Virus record (IMG/VR): IMGVR_UViG_3300045988_149975
Origin: a virus
Length of the DNA stretch: 64,000 bases
Strand: one strand, 5' to 3'
Part shown: positions 5,859-49,184 of the stretch, one piece after another
Layout of the letters: each line of letters starts with the position of its first letter
Numbering within the stretch: the first letter of the stretch is position 1
Translations under genes and position numbers: made by a program
The notes under the pieces: generated by a model
Seen by the model: the letters and a program-made list of their open reading frames with translations, nothing else
The model's database searches: none
Told to the model about the DNA's origin: nothing

Positions 5859-5868
5859 TATTATTAAA

Positions 5869-5943: not shown

Positions 5944-6049
5944 ATAATAACCTCATCAAGCCGATTTATTTAAGTAACTCATTCTTATACTCATAATCGG
6001 TGAAAAGACATATAAAACATATTACTTAAACTGATGAGGATTAATTACA

Positions 6050-6124
6050 TGGCACGGCAGAGAAGGACTTGAACCCTCATTAATGGTTTTGGAGACCACT
6101 GTTCTACCATTGAACTATCACCGC
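6050..6124 (-). tRNA. tRNA-Trp(CCA)-like with non-canonical acceptor stem
   Basis: D-arm GTTC-AATGGTA-GAAC. Anticodon stem GTGGT/ACCAT with loop CTCCAAA. T-arm GAGGG-TTCAAGT-CCTTC. The acceptor pairs only with 3 G.U wobbles, 1 mismatch and a one-nt register problem. Confidence 0.4.
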
Positions 6125-6368
6125 ATTTTATAGGGAACAGATTTTCACTTTTACTACTAACCTGTTCCCTATCTCCGAAGGAACTGCTATTTTGGGTACG
6201 CCGCTTTTAAACTACTGCCCAACATTTTAGGAAAATGACACTTCCCAGGCGTATATATAAAACCATGTCATAAGTTCCCAAACAATAAGCGAGCCTATAA
6301 CAACAGTTTTATTATCTATGGGGCTTTCGCCCCTAAATCAGCTTATAAGCTGACCAACGATGGCTAAT

Positions 6369-6445
6369 TGGTAGACGGTACGGGACTCGAACCCATATTA
6401 TAGCCTTGAAAGGGCTATGCCTTAAACCTCTTTGGCGAACCGTCC
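6369..6445 (-). tRNA. tRNA-Glu(UUC)
   Basis: Acceptor GGACGGT/ACCGTCT. Anticodon stem TAGCC/GGCTA with loop CTTTCAA. T-arm ATGGG-TTCGAGT-CCCGT. CCA encoded. Long D-loop. Confidence 0.55.
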
Positions 6446-6449
6446 ATTA

Positions 6450-6526
6450 TGGCGGTAATACAGGGGATTGAACCCTGAACTTTGCCTTGACAGGGCAATG
6501 TTTTATCCTATTAAACTATATCACCG
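6450..6526 (-). tRNA. tRNA-Asp(GUC)
   Basis: Acceptor GGTGATA/TATTACC. D-arm GTTT-AATAGGAT-AAAC. Anticodon stem TTGCC/GGCAA with loop CTGTCAA. T-arm CAGGG-TTCAATC-CCCTG. GCCA 3' end. Confidence 0.7.
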
Positions 6527-6527
6527 T

Positions 6528-6616
6528 GGTGGGCAGGGCAAGATTTTAACTTGCGATGTTTCTAACGTGGATGATTTACAGTCATCTGCCTTCGTACAAC
6601 TCGGCACACCTACCCA
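6528..6616 (-). tRNA. tRNA-Tyr(GUA), type II with long variable arm
   Basis: Acceptor GGGTAGG/CCTGCCC. Anticodon stem GATGA/TCATC with loop CTGTAAA. Variable arm about 15 nt. T-arm GCAAG-TTAAAAT-CTTGC. ACCA 3' end. Confidence 0.6.
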
Positions 6617-6644
6617 TTTATTTAAATATTTACTGCATTTCATT

Positions 6645-6720
6645 GGAAGCGGGTATGGGTACTGCCCCCATTTAGTCAGGCTTATGAGACCTGTGAGGTT
6701 ACTTAACCTCCCACCCGCAA
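6645..6720 (-). tRNA. tRNA-Met/fMet/Ile2 (CAU anticodon)
   Basis: Acceptor (T)GCGGGT/ACCCGC(T) with a 1-72 mismatch. Anticodon stem CAGGT/GCCTG with loop CTCATAA. Atypical T-loop GGCAGTA. CCA encoded. Confidence 0.5.
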
Positions 6721-6782
6721 TTATTAGTGGAGTTAAATTTCTCTAACTCCACAAGTATATGTCCGCAAACATATACCCTAAT

Positions 6783-7247
6783 TTATCTAAAGGGAACTCT
6801 ATTTTCCATCTTCCTACATACTACCTTACTTGCCGAAAATCGTTCCCTTTCGTAACCTAATCTTCTATAATCACGAGCAGAATGTTTATTTCGTGATTTA
6901 TAAGTTGGTAATTGACTATCACAATTAGGACAAATTAAACGTAAATTATCTTTGAAATTATTTGTAGCATTACCATCAATATGGTCTAAAATAAAATTTA
7001 AGGTCTTGCCATTCCACTCATTGGAGATACCACAAATAGCACATTTCCCATCTTGTGAATCAAATATATAATCTCTTATAGCATTTCTTAATGTTGTAGC
7101 CACACCACAATTAGTATCCCCTGTTTTTAACCAGTTATTTATTAAATCATTTCTATTTTTATTAACCAAACATTTATGACATAAACCACTTATTGTCTTT
7201 TTAGACAACTTTATACCACAATTATTACAAAAAAATGGCATTATCAA
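6783..7247 (-). CDS. HNH endonuclease inserted within the tRNA array
   Basis: CxxC pairs plus LDHIDGNATNNFKDNLRLICPNCDSQ, an HNH/His-Me finger. Confidence 0.7.
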   Translation of the reverse strand: MIMPFFCNNCGIKLSKKTISGLCHKCLVNKNRNDLINNWLKTGDTNCGVATTLRNAIRDYIFDSQDGKCAICGISNEWNGKTLNFILDHIDGNATNNFKDNLRLICPNCDSQLPTYKSRNKHSARDYRRLGYERERFSASKVVCRKMENRVPFR

Positions 7248-7262
7248 AACTCCTCATATTTT

Positions 7263-7351
7263 TGGAAGAAGGTAGGGGACTCGAACCCCTAAAAGGCTCT
7301 CACCTCTCGTCTGCTTTCAAGGCAGATGCCTTACCATTAGGCTAACCTTCC
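7263..7351 (-). tRNA. tRNA-Ser(UGA), type II
   Basis: Acceptor GGAAGGT/ACCTTCT. D-arm GCC-TAATGGTAA-GGC. Anticodon stem TCTGC/GCAGA with loop CTTGAAA. 19-nt variable arm. T-arm AGGGG-TTCGAGT-CCCCT. CCA encoded. Confidence 0.7.
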
Positions 7352-7523
7352 ATTTACTGCTCCCTTGAGCCACTTGGGTACTACGCCATAATTTCCATTT
7401 AGCCAAAGGTAGCAATAGATAACCTTATTATTCTATCATCTGTAACAAATTTTTTTTAAAGTAATAATTGCAGACATATATTTTTCAATATACGCTTTCT
7501 CAAATAAATATTGCTACCCTTGG

Positions 7524-7575
7524 ATAAGTGGCGGAGCGTAAACCGCTGCATTACCATTATGCTAACGCTCCGTTT
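7524..7575 (-). ncRNA. degenerate tRNA-like fragment (acceptor-like stem plus D-arm mimic only)
   Basis: GGAGCGT-TA-GCA(TAATGGTAA)TGC-A-GCGGTTT-ACGCTCC-GCCA. The D-loop matches the adjacent tRNA-Ser; anticodon and T arms are absent. On the plus strand it is followed by a T-run. Confidence 0.35.
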
Positions 7576-7581
7576 TTATGT

Positions 7582-7610
7582 ATTATAACATATTAACATA
7601 AAATTGTCAA
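7582..7610 (-). promoter_or_regulatory. sigma-A type promoter driving the tRNA/HNH array
   Basis: Minus strand TTGACAattttatgttaataTGTTATAAT. Confidence 0.55.
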
Positions 7611-7643
7611 GACTTTTTTAGAATTATTTAAAATTTTAACATC

Positions 7644-8423
7644 TTACTTTTCTTTATTATTATTCCTTTTATACTCAAATGAAGTTTTAGCTACAAGACC
7701 GTACTTCTTTAAATACTTTTTTATACCATTATCTGATACACCATAAATCCTGCCCATTTCTCTCATACTTAAACCTTCATCAACAAGTTTTTTCAATTCT
7801 TCCCTTAAAATATTATCATCTTTTTTAAGAGTATTATTTTTTATAGTCTTATCTGCACTCCTCACAATACTTCTATTGAGAGAAGAACATTTAACGCTAC
7901 AAAAAATTTGTGTATGTTTCTTTGGAATAAATATTTTATGGCACATAGGACACTCAACACGTTTATCTTGTAATGATTGTAATACTTTTACGCCATCTCT
8001 TTTTGTACGCTCGGTATAAGTTACTTTATAACCTCTACCGCTAACTTTTCCCGATTTAACATTTCTTCCTCTATAATTTTCAGTTAACGAATGACAATTA
8101 GGACAAATTAAACGTAAATTACTTTCACTGTGGTTTAATGGGTTTCCATCTATATGGTCAATCTCCAATGGTACGTTTCCAGTGTAAGGATTAACCTCTC
8201 CCCAACCACATATAGAACACTTACCATCATTTAATTCAAATAGATACCTTCTAATATAACCTGAAACTTCTCCCCAATTTCCTTGACCACCATCAACTAA
8301 ACCTTGTTTCCATTTAGATATATAATCTAAATAACGTGACCTCATACTACACTTTTTACTACAATATATGTTACGATATTGTGTAATCTCTTTTCCGCAA
8401 ATTGGACATTTTCTTTTTTCCAT
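7644..8423 (-). CDS. HNH endonuclease with C-terminal helix-turn-helix-like region
   Basis: EIDHIDGNPLNHSESNLRLICPNCHSL. Zn-ribbon-like CPICGK...CSKKC at the N-terminus. C-terminal LSMREMGRIYGVSDNGIKKYLKKYG. Confidence 0.7.
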   Translation of the reverse strand: MEKRKCPICGKEITQYRNIYCSKKCSMRSRYLDYISKWKQGLVDGGQGNWGEVSGYIRRYLFELNDGKCSICGWGEVNPYTGNVPLEIDHIDGNPLNHSESNLRLICPNCHSLTENYRGRNVKSGKVSGRGYKVTYTERTKRDGVKVLQSLQDKRVECPMCHKIFIPKKHTQIFCSVKCSSLNRSIVRSADKTIKNNTLKKDDNILREELKKLVDEGLSMREMGRIYGVSDNGIKKYLKKYGLVAKTSFEYKRNNNKEK

Positions 8424-8530
8424 TCTAATTCCTCCTAATTAAAATTATATAGGGAAGCATAGAGAAGGAGGCTCTATGCTTAATTACTCTATCAAAGTTT
8501 GCAACCTTTAATAGAAACCTTTAAAATCTA

Positions 8531-8605
8531 TGGTCGTCCCAAAGGTACTCGAAACCTTGTTTTACAATTATAAGTTGTACGTTCTAACCACTGAACTATG
8601 GGACA
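8531..8605 (-). tRNA. tRNA-Ile(UAU) (AUA-reading) candidate
   Basis: Acceptor TGTCCCA/TGGGACG with U1.G72. D-arm GTTC-AGTGGTTA-GAAC. Anticodon stem TACAA/TTGTA with loop CTTATAA. T-arm AAGGT-TTCGAGT-ACCTT. ACCA 3' end. Confidence 0.55.
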
Positions 8606-8608
8606 ATA

Positions 8609-8693
8609 TGGTGCGCATGGAGGGACTCGAACCCTCACGGTTTTACCCAACGGATTTTAAGTCCGTTGTGTCTGCCAATTCCACCACAAGCGC
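8609..8693 (-). tRNA. tRNA-Leu(UAA), type II
   Basis: Acceptor GCGCTTG/CATGCGC with one mismatch. Anticodon stem ACGGA/TCCGT with loop CTTAAAA. Long variable arm. T-arm GAGGG-TTCGAGT-CCCTC. ACCA 3' end. Confidence 0.6.
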
Positions 8694-19470: not shown

Positions 19471-19740
19471 TTTAAAGGAATGATGAAAATTTCGGCGGAG
19501 AATTTTAAGCACGTTTTTATTAAAGGGGGCTATATAATATTTAAAGCAGCCTTATAATAAATAGTTCTATACTTTAATTCTACAATTTCTGCCGCCGCCT
19601 TTTCCACTCTTTAAAAGTGATATAATAAAACAACTGTGGAAATTAAGGCAGCGGTGAAAATTAAGATAGCGATGTAAAATGTGTAAAAATCGGCGGCAGC
19701 GTAGTTATACCTTTTCTATATAAAAGAGTGGGTATAACAG

Positions 19741-20065
19741 TATATAAGATGAGGGGTAGTAGAGAGTATATAAGAGAGTGGTGAAAAATGGGGGGGTAAG
19801 TATATAAGAGAATAGTATATAAGAGAAAATAGGTATAAAACGGCGGGGCAAGATTAGTAATACTATTAGAAGAGAATAAGAGAGAGAGTATATAAGAAGG
19901 TATATAATAGGTATATAAGAGAGGGTATATATAAGAGTATATAAGAGTGGTGTAAAATATACGGGGCAGTATATAAGAGAGTGTATATAAAAGAGTGTAT
20001 AAAAGGCGGCAGAAGTATATGAGTATATAAGAGAGTATAAAGCCTTGGACAAGAGAGTATATAAA
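19741..20065. repeat. array of about 15 TATATAAGAG(A/T) direct repeats interspersed with GGCGGCAG GC-islands
   Basis: Repeated (G)TATATAAGAG. GC motifs CGGCGGCAG, CGGCGGGGCAAG, CGGGGCAG and GGCGGCAG. ORF-track ORFs 19661..20077 and 19705..20052 are low-complexity artefacts. Confidence 0.75.
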
Positions 20066-20214
20066 ATGAAAATCCATTATATAAACAAGTGTTCTATATT
20101 GTTTGCTTTACCCATACTCTCATGTGTGCCATCAAATCACATTAAATGCGCACTCAACGTGTACCGCTAAATCACATTAGATTTATTTCGCAAAAAATTT
20201 CTCTTTTAAAGGGC

Positions 20215-34069: not shown

Positions 34070-34477
34070 TTAATTCTCCTTATATTTCCTCAAAGTAATA
34101 GAAGTTTTACCATCTGAAAATACATATTCATCATAATTATTAGCAGTGTTCACAGAAATTAAAGGCAAATCAAAATCAATATCTCCCTCAATACAAACAT
34201 TATATTCTGCACCTAATATAAAGGGGTAAAGTGAATCAGCAGGTTCAATCCAATCTTCCTCAATATGCTTACAGTCTTGCCCATTCTCAAATTTAACTCT
34301 GTAAACAAATCTATCATCTTCATAGGCTGTAAATACTACTTCACCTATATCTCCCTTGTTTATTAAAGAATCTTTTACAAAGGTTTTACAAATTCTTACT
34401 TTATCACCATTGTCGAATTTACTTTCTTTAACGATTCTCATTCTTAAACAACTCCTTAAAAATATAATACAGTACAT
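34070..34477 (-). CDS. hypothetical protein (KFDxGDKV motif family)
   Basis: SKFDNGDKVRI. Confidence 0.35.
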   Translation of the reverse strand: MYCIIFLRSCLRMRIVKESKFDNGDKVRICKTFVKDSLINKGDIGEVVFTAYEDDRFVYRVKFENGQDCKHIEEDWIEPADSLYPFILGAEYNVCIEGDIDFDLPLISVNTANNYDEYVFSDGKTSITLRKYKEN

Positions 34478-36443
34478 CTACTACAATACTATTACCTGCC
34501 ATTTTATAAAGCTGTGTATTACTTATTCCTTTACATACTTCAATATCCCTATCCTCAAAGCCCATAAGCCTGAAGCACTCTTTAGGAGTAAGTTTACGGA
34601 TTCTATTCTCAATTTTGTAGAGTCCTGTTTTAGCACCTAATCCACCTGCTTCACCTTTAAGAGTAACAGATAAACCGTTTACATCATACACCACCCTTTT
34701 AGCCTGTGGCATACCGCTTGTAAGTTCTGTAAGCTGTGGAACTACAACACCTGTTGCAATTCTATCATCATTTTGTAAGAAATTTGCTTGTGAAGTTTTA
34801 TAATAATTAGCTTTAATAGTTCTACAAGTACCATCCTTTTCAGTACCATAGGGCGTAACAGATTTAAAATGTTTGATGTAATCTTTAACTTTATCATCTC
34901 GCATAAAGTATCTATCCTCTACCTCATTTTCAAGCACATCCTTTAGACTTTTAGTAAGTGGAAACGGCGCAGGAAAGTTAAAACCTTTATCAATATCTTT
35001 CCTAATAGATATTATAAATACTCTTTCTCTCCTTTGAGGTATTCCATAATCTGCGGCATTTAATACCTTCCAATAATTATTATACCCCATCTCACTTAAA
35101 CAGTCAAGTATATAATTAAATTCTTTTGTAAATTTTTTACCAGTGAGATTTTTAACATTCTCACATACTGCATATTTAGGTTTGACAGCATCGATAATCC
35201 TTAAAGCGTCAAACACTAATCCGCTACGAGTTTTTTCACCATTATATTCCAACCCCATTTTCTTACCACTTACAGAAATATCTTGACAATTATGCACTAT
35301 AATGTTATTGACAGTATATGAATTATCATTTTCAACTTCAAGATTGAATACCTCGATAGGCTTTTCAATCATTTCAATAGCTTTAATAGGTACTGCTATT
35401 TTATCTCCTATAACTAATTGATGCAATGCTCTATCAGAAAACTGCGCATTATAACAATCTTTAAAACTATCTTTTTGTCTATCTTTTCTAATACTTGTTG
35501 TAGGTACTACATTATAAAGTTTAATAACAATTCTACACAACTGTAAAAACATCTGCTCATTTATAGTGCTAAACATAAAAGTTGCTCTATCTTTTCTTCT
35601 ATGCCCATCACCACTCATATAACCATCGAAGAATTTAGATAACTGTTCTTTATTTAAAGACACAACCCAATCAGGAATTTTCTTAATACCTGCTCCACTA
35701 CCACAACTATGTATTACAGATTCTAATTTATCATCTATAATTCTGAAGTCAATACACGTTCTTTTACTATGTCCTTCATTATATCTGATATTAGTTAAAT
35801 GTTTTATAAATTCCTCTTTCTTACCTGAACCAATACAAAATATGGGACGTTTCTGATAAAGTTTTTCACAATAACCGTCTGCAAAATATCTACCAAAAAG
35901 CCATAGCCTATCATCATCTAAATCTGTATAGGCAGACTCTGTATTTATATTATAGGTAATGAAATCTGTAAGTTTTAGATCTTTAGCCTTAACCCAAACA
36001 AACTCTCCATCTCTATAAACATATAAAGGATGCTCATTAGTTAAATAAAGATTATAAGCCCCTACCCCTTTAATATGTCTAATACTATTAGAAATTCTTG
36101 ACATCGTTCTTAAAACTTTTTGATAATTATTTGTATGTGTAAGTACATAATCACCTACAATTATATCTTCAATATTTTTATAACCACACTGCACTTTAAT
36201 TTTTGTTCCAGCAGGAACACATGGAAATCCATAAGTTACTAAATCTACTCCAGGAAGTTCGCCTTCATTTACTTTAGTAATATCCCAAAGGTTTAAACTT
36301 TCAGGCACGTTATGGATTAAGGAATATGCTTTACTTGCATACTTATCTACTTCACAATAGTTGACAAGGGTATAATTAATTCCCAATCTTTCAAGGGCTT
36401 TTTCAAAAGCCCCTATACCTCTAAACAAACTTAATAATTTCAT
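34428..36443 (-). CDS. DNA (cytosine-5)-methyltransferase split by an intein at the PCQ catalytic motif
   Basis: Motif I LFRGIGAF. Motif IV GFP-[intein]-CQ. C-terminal ENV and TRD. The extein totals about 360 aa. Confidence 0.75.
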   Translation of the reverse strand: MKLLSLFRGIGAFEKALERLGINYTLVNYCEVDKYASKAYSLIHNVPESLNLWDITKVNEGELPGVDLVTYGFPCVPAGTKIKVQCGYKNIEDIIVGDYVLTHTNNYQKVLRTMSRISNSIRHIKGVGAYNLYLTNEHPLYVYRDGEFVWVKAKDLKLTDFITYNINTESAYTDLDDDRLWLFGRYFADGYCEKLYQKRPIFCIGSGKKEEFIKHLTNIRYNEGHSKRTCIDFRIIDDKLESVIHSCGSGAGIKKIPDWVVSLNKEQLSKFFDGYMSGDGHRRKDRATFMFSTINEQMFLQLCRIVIKLYNVVPTTSIRKDRQKDSFKDCYNAQFSDRALHQLVIGDKIAVPIKAIEMIEKPIEVFNLEVENDNSYTVNNIIVHNCQDISVSGKKMGLEYNGEKTRSGLVFDALRIIDAVKPKYAVCENVKNLTGKKFTKEFNYILDCLSEMGYNNYWKVLNAADYGIPQRRERVFIISIRKDIDKGFNFPAPFPLTKSLKDVLENEVEDRYFMRDDKVKDYIKHFKSVTPYGTEKDGTCRTIKANYYKTSQANFLQNDDRIATGVVVPQLTELTSGMPQAKRVVYDVNGLSVTLKGEAGGLGAKTGLYKIENRIRKLTPKECFRLMGFEDRDIEVCKGISNTQLYKMAGNSIVVDVLYYIFKELFKNENR
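35289..36221 (-). mobile_element. LAGLIDADG-type intein (about 311 aa) inside the C5-methyltransferase
   Basis: Starts CVPAGTKIKV directly after GFP. LWLFGRYFADGY and LSKFFDGYMSGDGHR. Ends NNIIVHN followed by CQ. Confidence 0.7.
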
Positions 36444-38480: not shown

Positions 38481-38667
38481 ACAAGATTACCTCACCATTA
38501 ATAAAATCTAAATCATCAATGTATGTACAAAAATTTTCATATTTACTATCAATACTAATAAAACATTCTACATTCCCTTGCTTATCTCTTACTTCAATGA
38601 GTGCATCAATAAGTTCATTTAATTTCATTAGAAATCCTCTCCTTTGCAATGTTGAAATAATTTTCAT
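38458..38667 (-). CDS. hypothetical protein
   Basis: Probable start MKLNELID with RBS GGAGAGG; overlaps the methyltransferase stop. Confidence 0.3.
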   Translation of the reverse strand: MKIISTLQRRGFLMKLNELIDALIEVRDKQGNVECFISIDSKYENFCTYIDDLDFINGEVILYGETNEL

Positions 38668-39326
38668 CTTTTTCTATTCCAATAAACTTACGATTATTCT
38701 TTAAAGCTGCTACACCAGTGCTACCACTACCCATACAATTATCCAATACTACATCACCTTCACTTGTATAAGTCTTAATAAAGTATTCAAGCAATGCAAC
38801 AGGTTTTTGTGTAGGATGTAATCTACATTTATCTTTATTAAAATCTAATACATCTACTGGATAGCGTTTTCCATCATTTACCGTTACTACTGATACTTGC
38901 TCTCCATAATTACTACTACCTCTACCACTTTTGCAGGTATAAGGTTTCCCTTCTCTAAATTGTGGATGGTACGGGGGGGGAGGAATAGAATACTAAAATA
39001 TTTTCATGGTTCTTTAAAGGCATTTTCTTTGCGTTTAAATGTCCTGTTCCCTGTGGTTTACGCCATATCCACTCATACTTGAGATTTTTGATATTGCTTA
39101 CACCTAATACCTTATCAAAAGGAGTCTGTGCAAAGAGTAGGATAGCACCATTATCTTTTATAATACGATTATATTCTTTCCACATTAAGTCCAAATCTAT
39201 AACACTATCCCATTTATTCCTTGTAGTACCAAAAGGCGGATCACAAAGAATTAAATTAACACACTTATCAGGTATATCTTTCATTACCTCTAAACAATCA
39301 CCTAAATACAATTTTAGTTTATCCAT
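38615..39326 (-). pseudogene. beta-class N6A/N4C DNA methyltransferase, frameshifted at a C8 homopolymer (candidate phase-variable gene or homopolymer sequencing error)
   Basis: N-terminal frame ends at 38955 and carries ...LILCDPPFGT... Coding-strand C8 at plus 38973-38980. With C7 the frame continues ...RLHPTQKPVALLEYFIKTYTSEGDVVLDNCMGSGSTGVAALKNNRKFIGIE... to a stop at 38615. Confidence 0.7.
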
Positions 39327-39886
39327 CTAACTACAGTTTCTCCTTTAAATCCCTTTTCCCAAATAAACCAAGCATAAGCAATCGCATTGGATGGGTATTT
39401 ATCAAAATCACCATTCTTTGCGCAAGAAAGCCTACCCCTTGCAACATATACATACTTTGGTGGATTTTCTTTATAAAATTCTCCACGCTCTTTGCCTTCT
39501 AAAAATTGAAGGCGTAAAAAGAACGCTACAGAGTTACCTTTAGGAATAATATCTAATGCGTGTTTCACAAATGGAAGTGCTTGTTTGTAAGGAGGATTAG
39601 AAACAATATCTCCGCCCCATTCAGTCACATCAAAGAAATTTTGTACCTTACCATATCCTCTATCATAAAGGTCAATACTTTCTACAATATAGTTAGCTTT
39701 TTCTAACTCTTTACTGATATGCCCCTCACCACAACAACACTCTAAAATTTTCGGAGCAAATTTGTACTCTGCAAGTAGTAATTGTACTGCTTTAGGCTGT
39801 GTAGCATAGTAATCCTCTAATTGCCTTTCTTCCCTTGAATGATTACTTGCACCAAGAGTTACATATACATTATGCTTTCCGTTCAT
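39314..39886 (-). CDS. phage Dam-like N6-adenine DNA methyltransferase
   Basis: EDYYATQP (DxxYTP-type motif), FxGxG-like CCCGEGH, IVSNPPYK. Confidence 0.6.
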   Translation of the reverse strand: MNGKHNVYVTLGASNHSREERQLEDYYATQPKAVQLLLAEYKFAPKILECCCGEGHISKELEKANYIVESIDLYDRGYGKVQNFFDVTEWGGDIVSNPPYKQALPFVKHALDIIPKGNSVAFFLRLQFLEGKERGEFYKENPPKYVYVARGRLSCAKNGDFDKYPSNAIAYAWFIWEKGFKGETVVRWIN

Positions 39887-40214
39887 ACTTAACCTCCAAT
39901 TTTACTTTAGTGCTAAATTCAGAGTCTTTCAATGCTTCAATTCTTTCTTTCAAATACTTACAGCAATTTTCCTCTGTCATTGTTTTAATAAATTCGCAGT
40001 TCTGTAACAAAACTTTCATTAAATAATCTTCAGTAGGGCAAAAATCGTACATTTTATCACTATGCGCTTTAAGCACATACCTATCGAATGTTACTGTTAA
40101 ATCAGTAATATAGCTACTTCCATAATCACAAGTGGGGCAGCCTTTAAAGGCTTCTTTATCATAATCAATGTTTACAATACCACCGTCTACTAATTTCATT
40201 AAATAATCTTTCAT
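39870..40214 (-). CDS. hypothetical Cys-rich protein
   Basis: CPTCDYG...C...CC. Confidence 0.35.
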   Translation of the reverse strand: MKDYLMKLVDGGIVNIDYDKEAFKGCPTCDYGSSYITDLTVTFDRYVLKAHSDKMYDFCPTEDYLMKVLLQNCEFIKTMTEENCCKYLKERIEALKDSEFSTKVKLEVKYERKA

Positions 40215-40721
40215 TTTTTAATCTCCTCAAATATAATTTGTTTTGGTAAAATATTATGACATACATATACGCTTGAAAACGGTGGATTAAGAGATGGTTT
40301 TTGTTCTCTATAATCTTTGAAGTATGCAACTCTCTTATTAAAGTACATAATTTCAAAGTCATTATCTTTGAACATATTAAATCTCTTTTGGCTTTCAAAT
40401 AATCCTACAACACCTACAAGCATTGCAAAGGGTTTACCAATCTCAAACAGCCTTTGTAATACCTCGCCCTTTAAAGAATAGGGAGGATTACTTATAATAT
40501 AATCACAATCAGGAATAGGCTCTTTAAAGAAATCTTTACCCTCATTTATATGTGAGTGTATAACCTCATTTCCCCCCCCCTAAAATCTTTACAAAATTCG
40601 ACTCTTCAGTATCAAAGGGACACCAAATTGTAGAACCAGGTTTTAGATATTTAATTAAAGGTTCAATAGCATATACAGGAGTGTAAAATTCATCATTACC
40701 GCTGCTTGCCACTTTATCCAT
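40211..40721 (-). pseudogene. phage Dam-like N6-adenine methyltransferase, frameshifted at a G9 homopolymer
   Basis: N-terminal fragment MDKVASSGNDEFYTPVYAIEP...ILGGGK stops at 40566. Coding-strand G9 at plus 40572-40580 (C9 on plus). With G8 the frame continues ...DCDYIISNPPYSLKGE... to 40211. Confidence 0.7.
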
Positions 40722-40723
40722 TT

Positions 40724-41071
40724 TCATTCCTTATCATACCTTTCTACGTTAGGTTTATCAAAAGTTTCCCACTTATAAGCACGCCAACCAGTTATAATAG
40801 AACCGTTACTCGCTACTACATAACAAAAATCACATTGACGCATTGGTATTCTTACACACACTTTTATAATCTTATCACCACTCATTGCCATTTCAAAAAC
40901 CATATTTTTTGAAAGTTTATCCTTTTGTACAAGCGGTAATCTTTTTTGTCTTGCCCTTACCATAAAATGATGAGTAAAATTTACCCTTTCAAAGCCATCC
41001 CAAAACTTCTGCATATCTACTTTAGGCATAAATATATTTTTGTGATACAGTTTCATAATAACAACCTCCAA
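40724..41071 (-). CDS. hypothetical protein
   Basis: 115-aa ORF. Confidence 0.4.
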   Translation of the reverse strand: MEVVIMKLYHKNIFMPKVDMQKFWDGFERVNFTHHFMVRARQKRLPLVQKDKLSKNMVFEMAMSGDKIIKVCVRIPMRQCDFCYVVASNGSIITGWRAYKWETFDKPNVERYDKE

Positions 41072-41152
41072 TCTTTTCTATGGTTTTATTATACACTACT
41101 ATTATCACTATGTCAATACCTTTTAATAAAAAAGCCGCCCAAAATCGAGCGG

Positions 41153-41464
41153 CTATTTAGTTAAAGTTTCTTTTACATAAATCTTATATTTAGAATTGCC
41201 ATAAGTAGAACTTTCAAATGTATTTGTTGGAATTTTAAAAACACTTTGAAAATTCTCACCAACTGATGATGTGTCTATACAAATAAAATAATCCTTGCTT
41301 ATATAGACAATAAAAGCACAAGTGAGAAAATCCTTTCCCTCATCTATTAATATTCTAACAGGGAAATTGTTACTAACATATATACAACTCATTAAAAATA
41401 ATAAGTTGCCATTATTAGGAACATATTTATCCCCATTCTCACTAATAATATATTCGGGAAACAA
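41153..41464 (-). CDS. hypothetical protein
   Basis: 103-aa ORF. Confidence 0.35.
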   Translation of the reverse strand: MFPEYIISENGDKYVPNNGNLLFLMSCIYVSNNFPVRILIDEGKDFLTCAFIVYISKDYFICIDTSSVGENFQSVFKIPTNTFESSTYGNSKYKIYVKETLTK

Positions 41465-41744: not shown

Positions 41745-41890
41745 AAGTAACCATTCGTAAATACTTCTTTAACTTTATTATATAATTCCACTCTTTTCAC
41801 CTCCATTATGTGCTTATTATAACATATTTTTACTGAAATGTCAAGTAAAATTTATTCCACACTTTGACGCATTTTTATTCCACACTTTGG

Positions 41891-42964
41891 CTATTCATTG
41901 TTTTTAAGTAAGAAATCAGGATTAATGACTTTAAAGGATATATCCTCTCTATAATTTCTTACAACAATACCTTCCCTATCTATATCATATAAAAGAGATT
42001 TACCTCTTGCTTTTTCTACAATATCATGAATAGTTGGGGGAAGTATAAAATCATTTGTAAGTACAGGAACATTGTTAAGCCCTAATTTTTTGCAGATAAA
42101 ACTTGCCTTATCTTGTTCAATGCGTAAATCATCTATAATTACATTGTAAACAAAGAAGTCATATCCTGAAACATGATATTTATTTCCTTGTATAGATTTA
42201 CCTATAATCTCACCTTGTATTACTACTTTATTAGCATTATATGTTTTAGCTATATCTTTTAAACAATCTTTTAAACCAAAACGCCTTGCCACTTCCCAAT
42301 ATGGGGAATCATCTTCTTTTCTTAACCATACATTTCTACTGCATACACCAAATTTTCCTTCATTTAAAAAATATGTAGCACTACATCCGTCTAATTTTTC
42401 AGTCATATAGAACTTAACATTGTCCTTATGCCATTTTTCATATTGATTAGGTAAATTTTGTACCCTTTCTTCATCTGTCTTATTACATATATTTACAGGA
42501 AATGAAGCATTTGTAGTTTTAAATTTCGCTAAAAGTTTTCTAAACCACCTGTATTTCATTAAAAACCGTAAAAATCTTGGGTAACTTACACTTTGTTTAA
42601 TAAGTTTTGTTTCAGCTTCAGCCTGCGGGTCATATTTAGTTATACCAAGTTCTTTTGTAACATCATCACCGATTTCATGATAACTGCCCCTTAAATAACT
42701 AATAGGTAATACCAAACCTTGTGAAATTTGCTTCCTTAATTTAATAGTTCTTACCCTGTACTTTCTATCCTTCATAAAAGCAAATTCAGGACGAGGAGGC
42801 AAAATGGAATCTACTTCTACAAAAATAACTTTATCCCCTACATTAAAATTATCAGATTTAGATACAACACATTCCCATCCCCTTACAGTAGCCTTGAGTA
42901 TTCTATCCGCATTGGGAATAGGTTCTAAACTTTCAATTCTTGCTATAGTTGCTAATTTACGCAT
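41891..42964 (-). CDS. ATP-dependent RNA ligase (Rnl family, DraRnl/Rnl5-like with N-terminal OB-like domain), putative
   Basis: Motif I TEKLDGCS, motif IV REGIVVRN, motif V KVINPDFLLK. N-terminal MRKLATIARIESLEPIPNADRI...GW..VVSK...GDKVIFVEVDSILP is typical of DRB0094-family RNA ligases. Confidence 0.5.
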   Translation of the reverse strand: MRKLATIARIESLEPIPNADRILKATVRGWECVVSKSDNFNVGDKVIFVEVDSILPPRPEFAFMKDRKYRVRTIKLRKQISQGLVLPISYLRGSYHEIGDDVTKELGITKYDPQAEAETKLIKQSVSYPRFLRFLMKYRWFRKLLAKFKTTNASFPVNICNKTDEERVQNLPNQYEKWHKDNVKFYMTEKLDGCSATYFLNEGKFGVCSRNVWLRKEDDSPYWEVARRFGLKDCLKDIAKTYNANKVVIQGEIIGKSIQGNKYHVSGYDFFVYNVIIDDLRIEQDKASFICKKLGLNNVPVLTNDFILPPTIHDIVEKARGKSLLYDIDREGIVVRNYREDISFKVINPDFLLKNNE

Positions 42965-42974
42965 TTATTATACC

Positions 42975-44840
42975 TCACTTTACTACCTCTGCTTCAATAG
43001 GTTTTTCTTCTGTTAAAAGTGCTTCAAGTATTCCTCCGCTGCGTGGATTACTACCCTTTACAACGGTACTTTCTATAGTTCCACCTTTTACTACCGTTTT
43101 ACTTACTGTTACAGGATTACCATTTACCTCATTCTGTAATTTATGTAGTTTTTCTAAATAACCCCATGCATCTTTCATTAAATCAGAAGTTCTTTCTGTA
43201 GCTATACCACCTTGTTGAGTTTCTTGTAAATATGATTTCTGTACTCTTTCCAAAGCTAAATCGGCTAAAGAAGTCATACCATCTATTACATCATCTTGAT
43301 TACGAGTATTAAACTTACGGAAAAGATTATCGTAAGCACAGATATATCCTGCTTGATATTCAGGACAATTAGTTGCTAATACGCACCTGTCACATGATAA
43401 TCTTGCTATTGCTTTAGTAGAAATTTTCTTTTGTTTTCTTAATTTTTTAATACCTGCCTTAATATTACCGTCTTTATCATATATAGGTGTAATATCATTT
43501 CTAATAAGTTCTTTTTCTACCTCATCCTTATCATAACCTGCTGTAAGCAGCGCAGGAAGAAGTTTTCCACATTCCTCTCTTGATAACTCCACCTCTGTAT
43601 ACTCTTTATCTGTAATATACTGCTGACGCTCTAATGCTTTACGTTCATTATCTAAAGGCTCATGTAAATTCTGTAAAGCCCTCTCCTGTCCATTTAAAGC
43701 GTTTTTAAAAGCCTCTTTTAAGAAGGCTATACATTTATCCTTTGTATTATATTTAACACCCTCTGCGCCAAAATATGCGCAAATTTCAACTAAATCTTCA
43801 AGCTGATAAGCATTTAAGTCTTTATTATTAATAAAGTTATAAAAATCTAATAATAAAGTAGTGCCAAAATCTTTAGGTACTTGTGTATCTATACCTGCTT
43901 CATCTAACTTATCTTCCCAATCGTTCATATCAGTTGAAAACCACTCATAAGAAGGTAACTTATACATCTTTCTATCACTCCAATACTTTTTAGGGAACAT
44001 AACCTGTTTTACATACTCTTCCATTTTCTTAAAAGCAATAGCTGATGCTTTCATAAGTTCAGTTGACGCTTCTATATCCAATAATTTAGGATTAAGTTTA
44101 AGTGCTTCTAACTTTCCACGATATTCCCCATCTTTCCATTGCTCTTTTTTCAACCTTTTAAGTTTACCACCTTCAAAATAGTTTACTTCCCCGAACTGTG
44201 AACCCGTAAGCCAACTTGTCATATCAGCAGAGAAAAAAGGATGTTTGAGTAATAATTTATTACTTCCTACACCAAAACCATGTATTTTAGCTTTATTTTT
44301 GACTGCTATCTCAAAAAGTTTATCAATATACTCAATAGGATTATCTAAACTTGCGTTCATTTCAACAGCAGAAAAACCAACATAAGGATGTTTTCTACAA
44401 AGTTTATCAAAATCCTCAAAGCTATCATCTAAATGATATACATATATTACAGGTATACCCTCTTCTTCTAAAGGCATAAAATATTCTTTACGCCATCTTT
44501 CTACAACATCTTTGCCAACAAGACTTGATAAGTCAAGTTCTACACAAGCAAAGATTAAATCTCTATGCTTTTTAACAAAGCCTATGTATTTCTTTAGATA
44601 ATCTTCCCACCACTCTACGCTTTTATCACGATATTGAGCGTCATTTATGAAAGTATGTGCGCCACTGTCAATAAGAAATTTCATTCCTTTTTTCTTGTAT
44701 AACCGTTCTTCTATCTCCTCTTTACCTCTACGCCTTATATAGTAATAAGACAATAATAAATTTTTAGTGACTGCACTTGCTATATCATAAATTTGTTTAG
44801 GCTCAACACCTGATAAAAATAATGTAAATTCGCTTTTCAT
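42975..44840 (-). CDS. large protein, possibly DpdA/TGT-like DNA-guanine transglycosylase
   Basis: FLIDSGAHTF resembles the TGT DSGGFQ motif. C-terminal Cys cluster CDRCVLATNCPEYQAGYIC. Lies adjacent to QueC-like and near QueE. Weak. Confidence 0.3.
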   Translation of the reverse strand: MKSEFTLFLSGVEPKQIYDIASAVTKNLLLSYYYIRRRGKEEIEERLYKKKGMKFLIDSGAHTFINDAQYRDKSVEWWEDYLKKYIGFVKKHRDLIFACVELDLSSLVGKDVVERWRKEYFMPLEEEGIPVIYVYHLDDSFEDFDKLCRKHPYVGFSAVEMNASLDNPIEYIDKLFEIAVKNKAKIHGFGVGSNKLLLKHPFFSADMTSWLTGSQFGEVNYFEGGKLKRLKKEQWKDGEYRGKLEALKLNPKLLDIEASTELMKASAIAFKKMEEYVKQVMFPKKYWSDRKMYKLPSYEWFSTDMNDWEDKLDEAGIDTQVPKDFGTTLLLDFYNFINNKDLNAYQLEDLVEICAYFGAEGVKYNTKDKCIAFLKEAFKNALNGQERALQNLHEPLDNERKALERQQYITDKEYTEVELSREECGKLLPALLTAGYDKDEVEKELIRNDITPIYDKDGNIKAGIKKLRKQKKISTKAIARLSCDRCVLATNCPEYQAGYICAYDNLFRKFNTRNQDDVIDGMTSLADLALERVQKSYLQETQQGGIATERTSDLMKDAWGYLEKLHKLQNEVNGNPVTVSKTVVKGGTIESTVVKGSNPRSGGILEALLTEEKPIEAEVVK

Positions 44841-45025
44841 CTATCAAAGGAACGGTATAAAGGATTACGGCGAAGCCTATCTACTCTCGAACTTAACCTA
44901 TTCCATGTTCGCTGATTCCATGTCGGTCGATTTCGGCGTAAACGCCCTGTATCATTACGTTTAATGTCAATAGACACATCATTATTACTATTGCCTAATG
45001 TATTATAATCTTTTCTACTACCCAT
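44837..45025 (-). CDS. small Arg-rich protein
   Basis: 62-aa ORF. Confidence 0.3.
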   Translation of the reverse strand: MGSRKDYNTLGNSNNDVSIDIKRNDTGRLRRNRPTWNQRTWNRLSSRVDRLRRNPLYRSFDR

Positions 45026-45603
45026 TATAATTCCCCCATTTCATTTTTAGTTAAATAGAATTTATATTTCTGTGCTTCTCGCCATTTACAGTCAGTACAT
45101 TGTCCACAAGGCTCTCCTACATTATTTGCAAAATTACAGGAAAAAGTATCTTCTAAATTAACATTTAAAGAGCAGCCTATACGATACACTTCATCTTTAT
45201 CCTTGTCTATAAATGGTGCAATTACTTTATATTTGTCCTCAAATTCCACTCTTAAATAAGCATTTATAGCATCCACCCACTTTTGAGTAGTATCTATAAA
45301 TTCTGTATTAGCAATTAATCCTATATAAATATTAGCGTCCTTTGGATATACCCTATTAATTAATTCTAATACAAATCTTGCATTACGGCAAGGATTAAAA
45401 CCATCTTTTTCAATTTTGGAGCGCATTTTATCAAAATAATCAAACTCTTTATTCTCCAAAATTTCACCTACATTAATAAGTTTACTATCTGTATCTTCCA
45501 TAATAAAGAAAAATGTTTTAGGATTTAAACCTTTATGTTCCATCCATGCCTTCAACACTGTACTGTCATAACCATGACTCCATAATAAAAAATTATCTCT
45601 CAA
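45025..45603 (-). CDS. queC: QueC-like 7-cyano-7-deazaguanine synthase (PP-loop ATPase)
   Basis: Degenerate PP-loop LLWSHGYDST. C-terminal zinc motif CGQCTDCKWRE, of CGxCxxCxxR type. Confidence 0.45.
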   Translation of the reverse strand: MRDNFLLWSHGYDSTVLKAWMEHKGLNPKTFFFIMEDTDSKLINVGEILENKEFDYFDKMRSKIEKDGFNPCRNARFVLELINRVYPKDANIYIGLIANTEFIDTTQKWVDAINAYLRVEFEDKYKVIAPFIDKDKDEVYRIGCSLNVNLEDTFSCNFANNVGEPCGQCTDCKWREAQKYKFYLTKNEMGEL

Positions 45604-45808
45604 TCCAAACTACGCCCCTTTTCTTTCTATATTTTGTAACAAGAGTATATAAACTCTTTGTACCAAATATAAATACCTTATTAAAGTTGAAAGCATTAAG
45701 AATATCTATATCGCCACCATAAAAAATTTCAAAAGGTACATTAAACTTTTTACAGAAATTATAAACTGCCACAATATTTATGTCCCCTATACTGCAAAAG
45801 ATATTCAT
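45593..45808 (-). CDS. hypothetical protein
   Basis: 71-aa ORF. Confidence 0.3.
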   Translation of the reverse strand: MNIFCSIGDINIVAVYNFCKKFNVPFEIFYGGDIDILNAFNFNKVFIFGTKSLYTLVTKYRKKRGVVWIER

Positions 45809-45868
45809 TTTTTTTTGCCATTTAAGTGAAATTCAAGCACATCTGATATATCCTCTTCTGTCAAAATC

Positions 45869-46304: not shown

Positions 46305-49184
46305 TTAACATTTACTATAGCCACAATTATTACAATAAGCACACTTACCATCAGGAATAAGAGTATACTCACCACATTCAGGGCATTTCATTTTGCCATT
46401 ATGAATATCATCCTTTACCTCATGAATAGCTTTCTGCGTTTCCTCTGTAAGTGCTTTTTCAAAAGTATTTTTAGCATCCTCTATAGCTGTCTTATTTTCT
46501 TGCAAGTCTTTATAAATATCTCTAATTGCACTTGCAATACAAGAAGCGCAAGATTTAGAAATATCTTTTCTACCGCTACGCATTAAATAACTACAAGCAG
46601 GACAGTTAGCGTTGCTTAACTCATCAGCAATATCTAATGCTTTACCACCAAGCCTTAAAGCATAGCTTGTAAGTCTTGCAATAGTAGAAATATTAGCTTG
46701 ACAGCCTGTTTCTGCACCTACAAAAACCTCAAAAATGTGATTATCTTTTACATTTACTGTTACATAAAAATTTCTTACACAAGCTGTATGGTAAACAAAA
46801 GTGCGCCCCCAAAGGGATTTCACTCCATTACGTTTAACAGGCTCAAGATTATCTAACTGTCTTGCTTGCATATCATCTACTGTAACAGGTTCTTTAATAA
46901 TCTCAACTTTTGGCACATGATTTTTAACTTCTTTATTCTCTACATCAGCACGTTTTACACCATGGTCAGTACCAAGGATATTAATGCGTTTGCAGTTATC
47001 ACGAAAAATAGTAATACCCTTACAACCATTTGACCATGCCTGCAAATAAAGGTTAAAAATATCATCTACAGTTGCACTCTCTTTAAGATTAATAGTAGAA
47101 GAAATTGCATTATCTACATAAGACTGCATAGTAGATTGTAAATCAACCCTATCCTTGGGGTCAATATCATAAGTATCTACAATATAAGGAAACTTTTCTT
47201 TAATCTGTTCAGCAGTAAGTTCATTGGGATTATAACCTCTAAATTTTAAAAGATTTTCCACTGCAAGCATATTAATATGGAAAGATTTACCTTCTTTTTC
47301 AAGAACATGAGTAGTTCTATCATAAGACACTTGATAGTATGGTTCTACACCACCACTTTCTCTAAAGAGCATTGAAATTGAACCGGTAGGTGCAATACTC
47401 AATAAAGTGCCATTACGCATATTTTGAGATAAATCCTTTGCCACTCTTGAAGTAAATCTGTACTGAATATCATGTACCATACCACTTTTATCAAATTTTT
47501 CTTTGTCAAATTTACCAAAACTACCCTTTTCTGCCCCTAATTTTGCAGAAGTGGCATAGGCAGTAGTCTGCATATTGCGCATAATAGATGCTATAAGTTC
47601 AATACTTTTTTGACTGCCATATTTAATACCCATTGCTACAAACATATCTGCCATACCAAATATGCCTAAACCAATGCTACGCCAATCATCAATACATTTC
47701 CTATTCTTATCTAAAGGTTGAAGTTCATAACCATAATCAAGAATTTCATCTAATGCGGTTACAGCATTTTTAACTGTATCACAGAATCGCTCCATATTGA
47801 AATGCGCCGTATCAGTATAAGGATTATCTACGAAGTTATAAAGATTAATACTACCTAAATTACAAGCATTATACTCTGAACCTGCAAATTCACCACAATT
47901 CCCTGTCAAAACACCATTGGCAATGAAGGTATGATTTTTAGGCTCATTCATACAATAAACAGTATCAACTACTTCTGCTTCTTCGATAGCTACAACGCTA
48001 ATTTTAGGGCAGGCATAAGCTGTTACAATAAAATCAAGGTCATTATTAAAAACAGGATGTTTATACCAATCTAAAGTGTCACCAACTTTTAAATCTTTAG
48101 CTTCAACTCTGCCGACATCCCTCAATACCCATTTATGGTAAGGGGTACACTGAACAGTAGCACCATTAGAGAATTTAATCTTTAAAGTCTTTTGGTCATG
48201 CCCTGTTACTTTAGGAGTAACTTTGCTCCACTCATAACCATTCCAAACTTCTACCTCTTTACCTGCTAATTCCCCAATAGGTTTATACCCCTTTTTAGTA
48301 AGAATAAGGGTATCACCAGTTACACAAGGGTTTGTAGTATCAATCCTATATTCATTAATAGGATAGCCACTCAATAAGTTACATTCTCTTACATTATCAA
48401 TAAATAATGCCCCAGGCTCTCCCCAATCATACTGCGCTTCACAAAATTTCCTAAAGAAATCTCTTGCATTAATTTCTTTTTTAACCTCTTCACCATTTTC
48501 TTCATTTTTAAAGTGCAACTCAAAATTCTCATTACTAATTACACTTGTCATAAAATCATCAGTGAAACATATAGAAATGTTCGCACCCTGAATTTTATCA
48601 TTATTCTGTTTAATAGTTAAAAATTCTTCAATATCAGGATGGTCACAATTCAAGGAAATCAGAATTGCTGCCCTTCTTCCGTTATTTCCAATAACTTCAC
48701 CAATTACATTATAGACATCCATGAAGGAAACTGCACCGCTTGAAGTCTTTGCAGAATTATTAACTTTAGCACCCTTTGGGCGAAGGTTACTCAAATTAAT
48801 ACCTGCTCCACCGCCAAAGCTAAAAATTCTTGCCATTTCCTTACCTACATCAAAAATAGATTCAATGTTATCTTTAGGTGAGGGAAGAATATAACAATTA
48901 CTTGTTGTGGCTCTAAATTTTCCTTTACAACCTGCTGCATAAAGTGTTCTGCCCGCAGGTAAGAAAGTACCATCTATAATACTCTCTACCATAAAATCTT
49001 GTAATTCTTTTGTAGAAAAAATACTTGATACTCTTTTAATGAAAGCATTAAATCCTGCATCAAAACCTTCCTGTTCTACAATTTTTAACTCGTCATCGTG
49101 CATATATTTTTTCTTTATAATATTTTGCGGAATTTCATCATCCCACCATACTTTATACATATTTACATTACTAATTCTACCCAA
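46305..49184 (-). CDS. nrdJ: class II (adenosylcobalamin-dependent) ribonucleotide reductase with mini-intein
   Basis: Active-site motif TNP-[intein]-CGEF. C-terminal Cys cluster CPECGE...CAYCNNCGY. About 816-aa extein. Confidence 0.75.
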   Translation of the reverse strand: MGRISNVNMYKVWWDDEIPQNIIKKKYMHDDELKIVEQEGFDAGFNAFIKRVSSIFSTKELQDFMVESIIDGTFLPAGRTLYAAGCKGKFRATTSNCYILPSPKDNIESIFDVGKEMARIFSFGGGAGINLSNLRPKGAKVNNSAKTSSGAVSFMDVYNVIGEVIGNNGRRAAILISLNCDHPDIEEFLTIKQNNDKIQGANISICFTDDFMTSVISNENFELHFKNEENGEEVKKEINARDFFRKFCEAQYDWGEPGALFIDNVRECNLLSGYPINEYRIDTTNPCVTGDTLILTKKGYKPIGELAGKEVEVWNGYEWSKVTPKVTGHDQKTLKIKFSNGATVQCTPYHKWVLRDVGRVEAKDLKVGDTLDWYKHPVFNNDLDFIVTAYACPKISVVAIEEAEVVDTVYCMNEPKNHTFIANGVLTGNCGEFAGSEYNACNLGSINLYNFVDNPYTDTAHFNMERFCDTVKNAVTALDEILDYGYELQPLDKNRKCIDDWRSIGLGIFGMADMFVAMGIKYGSQKSIELIASIMRNMQTTAYATSAKLGAEKGSFGKFDKEKFDKSGMVHDIQYRFTSRVAKDLSQNMRNGTLLSIAPTGSISMLFRESGGVEPYYQVSYDRTTHVLEKEGKSFHINMLAVENLLKFRGYNPNELTAEQIKEKFPYIVDTYDIDPKDRVDLQSTMQSYVDNAISSTINLKESATVDDIFNLYLQAWSNGCKGITIFRDNCKRINILGTDHGVKRADVENKEVKNHVPKVEIIKEPVTVDDMQARQLDNLEPVKRNGVKSLWGRTFVYHTACVRNFYVTVNVKDNHIFEVFVGAETGCQANISTIARLTSYALRLGGKALDIADELSNANCPACSYLMRSGRKDISKSCASCIASAIRDIYKDLQENKTAIEDAKNTFEKALTEETQKAIHEVKDDIHNGKMKCPECGEYTLIPDGKCAYCNNCGYSKC
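47898..48326 (-). mobile_element. mini-intein (about 143 aa, no endonuclease domain) in nrdJ
   Basis: Starts CVTGDTLILTKKG after TNP. Ends FIANGVLTGN followed by CGE. Confidence 0.65.

Follow-up and report, generated by a model that had tools for sequence, protein, structure and literature searches.

The 64,000-nucleotide (nt) stretch of viral DNA analysed here, IMG/VR virus record IMGVR_UViG_3300045988_149975 (hereafter the window), comes from a ~100-kb tailed phage found in human-associated metagenomes. It carries two DNA methyltransferase genes, termed M1 and M2, each of which contains a G/C homopolymer tract and is out of frame (OFF) in the window. The two genes and their tracts, identified from open reading frames (ORFs) and family matches, and for M2 also from an AlphaFold2 (AF2) model, are the following:

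38615..39326, minus strand: M1, gene for a beta-class N6/N4 DNA methyltransferase, OFF in the window (ORFs, PF01555, phrog_67)
38973..38980, minus strand: M1 tract, G8 on the plus strand and C8 on the coding strand, encoding the proline run SSPP(P)Y
40211..40727, minus strand: M2, gene for a small NPPY-type amino DNA methyltransferase, OFF in the window (ORFs, PF13651, phrog_799, AF2 model)
40572..40580, minus strand: M2 tract, C9 on the plus strand and G9 on the coding strand, encoding the glycine run ILGGGN upstream of NPPY

The initial annotation of this DNA had claimed that the only two G/C homopolymers of 8 nt or more both interrupt methyltransferase genes. Reading of the sequence and a full census of runs confirmed this: the window, which has a GC content of 31.3%, contains just two such runs, G8 at 38973-38980 and C9 at 40572-40580 on the plus strand, and both lie inside M1 and M2, which together occupy 1.2 kb or 1.9% of its length. 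The third-longest G/C run, a G7 at 19790-19796, is located within an intact ORF of 138 amino acids (aa) without an assigned function (19661..20077, minus strand). Under a first-order Markov model, 0.037 G runs of at least 8 nt and 0.058 C runs of at least 9 nt are expected per window. In the long ORFs of the window CCC accounts for 10% of the proline codons and GGG for 10% of the glycine codons, so that the runs CCC-CCC and GGG-GGG-GGG go against the codon habit of the genome.

Both tracts are situated in the 5' half of their ORFs, and the effect of their length on the reading frame was determined in silico. Removal of one base or addition of two opens an ORF of 236 or 237 aa in M1 and of 171 or 172 aa in M2. 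The unchanged length, one added base, and two removed bases lead to truncated products of 123, 146, and 145 aa in M1 and of 53, 60, and 59 aa in M2, with a stop within a few codons of the tract in M1 and within ~10 codons in M2. Expressed as coding-strand lengths, C8 in M1 gives 123 aa followed by a stop, and C7, C10, and C13 give 236, 237, and 238 aa; G9 in M2 gives 53 aa followed by a stop, and G8 and G11 give 171 and 172 aa. The start codon of M2 is at either 40727 or 40721. The earlier claim that removal of a single base restores each enzyme is thus correct (236 aa for M1 with C7, 171 aa for M2 with G8), although the length of about 237 aa proposed for M1 is that of the C10 rather than of the C7 allele.

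The repaired M1 protein matches the Pfam family PF01555 (N6_N4_Mtase) over profile positions 1-221 of 221 with an E-value of 7e-33, and the PHROGs family phrog_67. It contains DPPF at residues 29-32, HPTQKP, and CMGSGST at residues ~198-204 (numbering of the repaired protein), that is, with the catalytic motif before FxGxG, which is the order of the beta class. A full-length PF01555 match together with (D/S)PP(Y/F) ahead of FxGxG places M1 among the beta-class N6/N4 amino-methyltransferases. With the tract placed after motif IV (DPPF) and before motif I (FxGxG), truncation costs the enzyme its S-adenosylmethionine (SAM)-binding motif; judged from this motif loss, the OFF allele of M1 should be null. 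The tract falls on a conserved proline dipeptide, at which homologues and natural alleles show PP, PPP, or PPPP, and an extra proline column is tolerated there. Natural full-length M1 alleles are represented by the proteins P0001, P0122, P0124, and P0125, and the 90% protein cluster of M1, with 93 members, includes 237/238-aa proteins as well as 123/124/146-aa pieces. At the M1 locus of one further contig (L155, 5397-6116), we observed a mosaic M1 of 239 aa that is in frame and lacks the homopolymer; its first ~20 and last ~60 residues are those of M1, with the central ~150 replaced by a divergent PF01555 sequence. Recombination appears to have exchanged the target-recognition part of this allele.

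The repaired M2 protein matches PF13651 (EcoRI_methylase) with 30.8 bits against a cut-off of 26.4, over residues 73-137 only, around NPPY, and the PHROGs family phrog_799, annotated as 'DNA methyltransferase', over residues 3-169. Across 36 M2 homologues, N80, P81, and P82 of the NPPY motif never vary, and Y83 is retained in at least 90%. The AF2 model of M2 (36 homologues; predicted local distance difference test score, 79; predicted template modelling score, 0.79) has the Rossmann fold of a SAM-dependent methyltransferase. Its best matches in PDB are the adenine-N6 methyltransferases DIMT1/KsgA with a template modelling score of ~0.5, and T4 Dam ranks 36th; a sequence search with M2 against PDB gave nothing meaningful. 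With a profile score above threshold, the NPPY motif, and a modelled class I SAM-methyltransferase fold, M2 can be assigned to the NPPY amino-methyltransferases of PF13651/phrog_799, and from the family annotation its substrate would be DNA and not RNA. In the model, the tract-encoded glycine residues 50-52 are in a loop between the helix 44-49 and the strand 54-57, and because of this position one glycine more or fewer would be tolerated. The OFF allele, which is cut off before the NPPY catalytic motif, should be null. Natural full-length M2 alleles are P0135 (99% identical), P0136, P0259-P0263, and P0271, and the protein clusters of M2 contain 168-172-aa proteins together with 57-60-aa pieces; in the 90% clusters of the two genes, long and short forms come from dozens of contigs.

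To read the tracts in other metagenome contigs of the phage species, the DNA for 37 M1/M2 places was fetched from Logan and ENA assemblies. IMG/VR itself holds two contigs related at ~95% nt identity. A megablast search with the 6.5-kb region as query, covering 50,697 deposited phage genomes, found no cultured relatives and returned only a 95-nt methyltransferase match, and a GTDB genome scan for the host revealed no relative above 79% aa identity. Within the species (95-99.98% nt identity), the M1 tract was read directly in DNA as C7, C8, C9, C10, and C13, with C11 implied by the protein P0129, and the lengths that are in frame depend on the downstream context, of which there are two kinds, GTACC and AATAT. 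The M2 tract was read as G7, G9, and G10, and lengths of 8 and 11 are implied by the proteins P0264 and P0270. In 27 non-redundant contigs carrying both tracts, the states of M2/M1 were off/off in 13, off/ON in 7, ON/off in 6, and ON/ON in 1, ON denoting an in-frame gene.

The closest comparisons concentrate the differences on the tracts, which mutate much faster than any other site. Contigs L176/L178 (C8) and L179/L182 (C9) differ by 1-2 single-nucleotide polymorphisms (SNPs) in 8.5 kb, and the one indel that separates them is in the M1 tract; L176, L179, and L182 look like one strain. L158, the closest relative of the window, differs from it by 38 SNPs in 4.1 kb, and the sole indels are the two tracts, G9 versus G10 and C8 versus C13. 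On a neighbour-joining tree of the flanks with the tracts masked, at least 11 changes of M1 length and at least five M1 ON/OFF switches are required. The states are reproducible: the window haplotype of G9 plus C8 is also present in L176 (an HMP-labelled sample) and in L178 (ERZ27273470), which are independent assemblies; the ENA contig L179 and the Logan contig L182 are 100% identical over 8,495 nt, C9 included; and three runs of one study (L158, L162, L166) share the C13 length in M1. The 36,466-nt Logan contig L162/L183 (SRR14630126) terminates exactly inside its C13 tract, an end that would fit either length heterogeneity at the read level or poor coverage at the tract.

Selection on both genes was assessed as the ratio of nonsynonymous to synonymous polymorphism (pN/pS) in repaired frames, using sequences filtered to at least 85% identity (14-17 unique sequences). 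In M2 the ratio was 0.008 upstream of the tract and 0.090 downstream, and in M1 it was 0.068 upstream and 0.032 downstream. The values for three genes nearby were 0.078 (an intact 190-aa methyltransferase), ~0.21 (a small conserved gene, orf114), and ~0.20 (the first 180 codons of an RNA ligase gene). Neither in-frame stops nor second lesions were present in the repaired M1 and M2 of these 14-17 sequences. With purifying selection acting both upstream and downstream of the tract, and with the genes otherwise intact, M1 and M2 are not fixed pseudogenes.

The association of tracts with these genes extends beyond the species. We surveyed 80 IMG/VR loci encoding M2 homologues with 56-91% aa identity. 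Homologues without a G/C run of at least 7 nt are in frame in 42 of 44 cases, and in 26 of the 35 with such a run the frame breaks precisely there; the remaining locus contains a partial gene only. The tracts occupy five positions (gene nt 47, 81-89, 148, 198, and 240) and consist of either C or G, which indicates independent origins and hence selection for mutability. A contig of 31% GC from a Christensenellaceae metagenome-assembled genome bin (L196) has a G8 tract at a nearly identical gene position. The closest cultured carrier of an M2 homologue is the Enterocloster phage CB473P3 (67% aa identity), in which the gene is intact and tract-free, with no methyltransferase island nearby; Campylobacter phages also carry M2 homologues, at ~37% identity.

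Many related phages with a GC content of 38-49% have 5-10 tracts within ~5 kb. Arrays of this density, composed of G/C tracts of 7-11 nt, were seen in L123-L146, L082, L084, L102, L067, and L110, as well as in L185, L189, L195, and L202-L204. The tract-bearing ORFs in these and other loci encode C5 methyltransferases (PF00145), PF01555 proteins, methylases of the D12 class and of the PF05869 Dam family, M2 homologues, and PAPS-reductase-domain proteins. Two of the contigs, L127 and L129, are separated by 15 SNPs in 12.5 kb and yet have five tracts of differing length, and all their internal indels are within tracts. Prophage-like tract islands are also present in the genomes of the cultured Clostridia Flintibacter muris DSM 110149, Dysosmobacter segnis BX15, Hominicoprocola fusiformis CLA-AA-H269, and Acutalibacter caecimuris. 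We lean slightly toward the view that selection has made G/C-homopolymer switching of DNA-modification genes a general strategy among gut phages and prophages, organized in islands with one tract per gene.

Both M1 and M2 combine a tract of hypermutable length within an ORF, length polymorphism on conserved flanks, and alleles in and out of frame, which are among the attributes of contingency loci. We consider it likely, from the comparison of sequences, that they are slipped-strand contingency (phase-variable) loci that toggle the methylation of the phage DNA. The initial annotation had left phase variation and homopolymer error as alternatives, and the comparative data favor the former, given natural lengths of 7-13 nt in M1 and 7-11 nt in M2, reproducible haplotypes, and the lack of decay. 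Its further suggestion that the protective methylation pattern switches stochastically has good support at the genetic level, but the phenotype is something that we infer from the genes.

Several observations weigh against phase variation of M1 and M2 or limit its reach. As the contigs were retrieved by exact protein sequence, the ON and OFF frequencies are no unbiased census, and recombination could inflate the parsimony counts from the tree. M1 is ON in 8 of the 27 contigs, which is near the one-third expected from random lengths. Four contigs of one study with identical sequence (L170, L172, L174, L175) carry identical tracts, so that consensus states can be stable in the short term; among these identical contigs there was no zero-SNP pair with differing tracts, and the closest pair with a tract difference is separated by 1-2 SNPs. 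Among the related phages of ~42-49% GC, the 24 contigs L123-L131 and L133-L146 all have one particular tract at C8 (OFF); OFF may thus be the usual state, or expression may be independent of the DNA frame. M1 is deleted in L157 and L168 (671-nt deletion) and partly in L153 (573-nt deletion), in L105 it has lost the FxGxG motif through a 108-nt in-frame deletion (corresponding to 38651-38758 of the window), and M2 is internally deleted in L147. Because wild relatives sometimes delete them wholly or partly, M1 and M2 are dispensable accessory genes; their variation suggests frequently reshuffled accessory genes, as expected of anti-restriction cargo.

Phase variation was weighed against four other explanations of the frameshifts. 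Errors of sequencing or assembly would mean that the true tracts are in frame (C7 and G8) and that the extra base in each is a miscall. Indel errors classically arise in homopolymers, each of the two lesions amounts to exactly +1, and the contig ending within C13 indicates that assemblers can struggle there. Yet the same G9 plus C8 haplotype was recovered from independent samples (L176, L178), L179 and L182 agree across assemblies, the natural lengths of 7-13 nt exceed a miscall of one base, and C13 appears in three runs of one study. Moreover, differences between relatives are rare in the many A/T runs of 7-9 nt, and the G/C tracts account for most of the 1-nt indels, all of which makes error very improbable. 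Decay would regard the tracts as mere mutational hot spots and the frameshifts as first steps to the loss of the genes, consistent with the deletions of M1 (L157, L168, L153, L105) and M2 (L147), with the OFF state of about half or more of the contigs for each gene, and with a window that is OFF for both. We nevertheless find decay improbable, as the downstream pN/pS of 0.03-0.09 is equal to or below that of the intact neighbors, no second lesion accompanies the frameshifts, full-length alleles are common, and ON and OFF states are interspersed on the tree with at least five M1 switches. In addition, the tracts have been kept across ~5% nucleotide divergence despite the codon bias against CCC and GGG, and tracts arose independently at five positions in the homologues.

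Frame-independent expression, in which slippage of RNA polymerase on the G/C run or +1/-1 slippage of the ribosome on CCC-CCC or GGG-GGG would give some full-length enzyme from every allele and turn the OFF state into a dimmer instead of a switch, is unlikely. Long homopolymers can induce slippage by RNA polymerase or the ribosome, and CC[C/U]-N are known +1 shift sites. This explanation fits the purifying selection on the downstream halves despite the frequent OFF consensus, and also the uniform C8 (OFF) of the 24 related contigs, where C-CCC-CCC resembles a -1 slippery heptamer. On the other hand, transcriptional slippage is best documented on A/T runs and not on G/C runs, and natural alleles exist in all three registers, with no single programmed shift conserved. 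As the relatives include simple in-frame genes, M1 and M2 do not behave as programmed-frameshift genes. Slippage during expression would in any case be compatible with switching at the DNA level, making the switch leaky without abolishing it. A chance placement, with the tracts unrelated to the genes in which they sit, has in its favor only the small number of tracts (two), and is effectively refuted by the Markov expectations of 0.037 and 0.058, by the confinement of both tracts to 1.9% of the window, and by the recurrence of the association in 35 of the 80 homologous loci and in the multi-tract islands.

The phase-variable genes are surrounded by further genes related to DNA modification, and the features of this region are as follows:

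34428..36443, minus strand: C5 cytosine methyltransferase with an intein and LAGLIDADG domain, tract-free (PF00145, E 4e-66; PF14890; PF14528)
39314..39886, minus strand: intact 190-aa NPPY methyltransferase, tract-free (phrog_799, E 2e-60; weak PF05869 Dam match)
39870..40214, minus strand: orf114, a small conserved gene whose start overlaps the M2 stop (phrog_20043, unknown function; found in all relatives)
41088..41116, minus strand: sigma-70-type promoter match TTGACA-17-TATAAT, perfect 12/12 (consensus match only)
41133-41154: terminator-like hairpin just before the 41088-41116 promoter match
41816-41844, minus strand: second perfect 12/12 sigma-70 consensus promoter TTGACA-17-TATAAT, upstream of the methyltransferase operon
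42975-44840, minus strand: DpdA/TGT-like gene (phrog_887 queuine tRNA-ribosyltransferase, E 1e-65)
45025-45603, minus strand: QueC-like gene (PF06508 QueC)

The two neighbors named in the initial annotation, the intact methyltransferase at 39314-39886 and the intein-bearing C5 methyltransferase at 34428-36443, are both supported by the ORF list and the family matches. The intact NPPY enzyme is 190 aa long in every relative and is a distant paralogue of M2, with 27% identity confined to the surroundings of motif IV. The DpdA/TGT-like and QueC-like genes are predicted to form a 7-deazaguanine DNA-modification module, and its presence shows that the tracts lie in a larger DNA-modification island that comprises the DpdA/TGT-like gene, QueC, an RNA ligase, M2, orf114, the intact NPPY enzyme, and M1 and, further on, the C5 methyltransferase. 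The arrangement of the promoter match at 41088-41116 suggests that a 115-aa ORF, M2, orf114, the intact methyltransferase, and M1 form one operon transcribed from it by the host polymerase, in a region where the total of promoter-like sites is no higher than in shuffled sequences. Scans of the ORFs, Pfam, and PHROGs detected no nuclease and no HsdS/Res family among the neighbors, which are other methyltransferases, small ORFs without an assigned function, an RNA ligase, and DpdA/QueC. M1 and M2 thus differ from phasevarions, which are Type I, III, or IIG systems with a cognate nuclease or specificity gene, and as orphan enzymes on a phage genome they do not belong to a restriction-modification system.

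The presence of inteins is polymorphic within the phage species. The C5 methyltransferase of the window, with its intein and LAGLIDADG domain, has 671 aa, and several relatives (among L155, L158, L159, L162, L168, and L176-L179) have an intein-less enzyme of 359-360 aa. The RNA ligase shows the reverse pattern: it is intein-free in the window (41891-42964, 357 aa), and many relatives encode a 720-aa form with an intein and LAGLIDADG domain. Some ~200 nt upstream of the QueC-like gene, an intergenic T9 at 45808-45816 (A9 on the coding strand) reads A7 in both IMG/VR relatives, and could be a length-variable promoter or leader element or a neutral indel. Elsewhere in the window, eight tRNA genes are encoded on the minus strand at 5786-8693 (Pro, Thr, Trp, Glu, Asp, Ser, Ile-TAT, and Leu-TAA). 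A 701-aa RtcB-like ligase at 25615-27720 matches tRNA-splicing ligase over residues 389-701 and a PhoH-like family over residues 73-389, and a 959-aa ribonucleotide reductase large subunit at 46305-49184 has split family matches; either protein may contain an intein or be a fusion.

Phase variation of M1 and M2 could operate as follows. Polymerase slippage during replication of the phage DNA would add or remove a tract base. Each gene would thereby pass among three registers, of which one is in frame (ON) and two are out of frame (OFF), in a presumably reversible manner for which the M1 switches required on the tree are indirect evidence. The two tracts would change independently, which could give up to four methylation types per phage population, and the switchable marks would overlay a constant set contributed by the intact NPPY and C5 enzymes and by the 7-deazaguanine module. 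In this way, the protective marks on the phage DNA probably vary at random. The benefit would be bet-hedging: a methyl mark would guard against a restriction enzyme that cuts the unmodified site, and the same mark may expose the phage to methylation-dependent (Type IV) nucleases or simply be costly. With both states in each burst, some of the progeny would survive in the next host, whichever kind it is. The target sites, the selective agents, the mechanism and rate of slippage, and its reversibility are all matters that we infer.

Phage methyltransferases are usually viewed as fixed anti-restriction equipment. If they are individually switchable, then a phage population is an epigenetic mixture, and host range, escape from restriction, and sensitivity to methylation-dependent defences would be properties of subpopulations and not of the genome sequence. 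If such switching is indeed general, one burst could yield a combinatorial library of methylation patterns (2^n epigenotypes), with two tracts here and up to ~10 in the phages and prophages of Oscillospiraceae and relatives. This would be the viral equivalent of the phasevarions of bacteria, directed against the varied restriction and Type IV systems that gut microbes possess. Annotation would be affected, as metagenomic phage genomes list such genes as 'pseudogenes' or split ORFs, and so would the linking of phages to hosts by methylation motifs; phage-therapy stocks may behave unlike their consensus sequence.

Among known systems, homopolymer 'contingency loci' are widespread in T-even phages (Gomez, Barrick & Waters, bioRxiv 10.1101/2025.10.21.683753). 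In T2, the A-run of agt reverts ~1000-fold faster than a point mutant, and the phage alternates through agt between resistance to TgvAB, a modification-dependent defence, and resistance to McrA/BC, which attack unmodified DNA (bioRxiv 10.1101/2025.10.21.683753). The logic proposed for M1 and M2 is the same as for agt, a homopolymer in a phage DNA-modification gene that in T2 undergoes frequent reversible +/-1 frameshifts and yields a mixed population able to survive either defence. The T2 case differs in that it involves A runs of ~9 nt in a glucosyltransferase gene of a cultured coliphage and rests on experimental proof, whereas here G/C runs that go against the AT bias are found in two orphan DNA methyltransferases of an uncultured phage, with comparative evidence only. 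Campylobacter Fletchervirus phages are reported to carry hypermutable polyG tracts (Sorensen et al. 2021, Cell Rep 35:109214, as cited in 10.1101/2025.10.21.683753). These G tracts of 7-11 nt in phage ORFs likewise create ON/OFF subpopulations, but they belong to genes for receptor-binding proteins and alter host recognition and not DNA modification. A polyG tract in a methylase gene, comparable in kind to those of M1 and M2, is mentioned for Bordetella phage BPP-1 (Liu et al. 2004, as cited in 10.1101/2025.10.21.683753); going by that citing text, it is an annotation remark, with polymorphism, selection, and generality unexamined. Our literature search yielded no account of G/C-tract-controlled methyltransferase genes or islands in phages beyond these T2, Fletchervirus, and BPP-1 items. 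The mechanism is familiar, and it is the carrier (orphan phage methyltransferases), the multiplicity, and the breadth across gut phages that appear to be undescribed so far.

The bacterial parallel is that of repeat-switched methyltransferases and phasevarions, which include Type III mod, Type I hsd, and Type IIG genes of Haemophilus, Neisseria, Helicobacter, and Campylobacter (PMC4889913, PMC5149525). As in M1 and M2, the repeat is located in the methyltransferase ORF, with ON/OFF switching of the methylation of a motif by slipped-strand mispairing in those systems, and the G/C homopolymers are of similar length (8-13). In contrast to M1 and M2, phasevarions are chromosomal, usually belong to restriction-modification systems, and act as global gene regulators. 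The genes described here are phage-encoded orphans with no nuclease gene detected alongside, and their presumed role is the protection of the phage genome.

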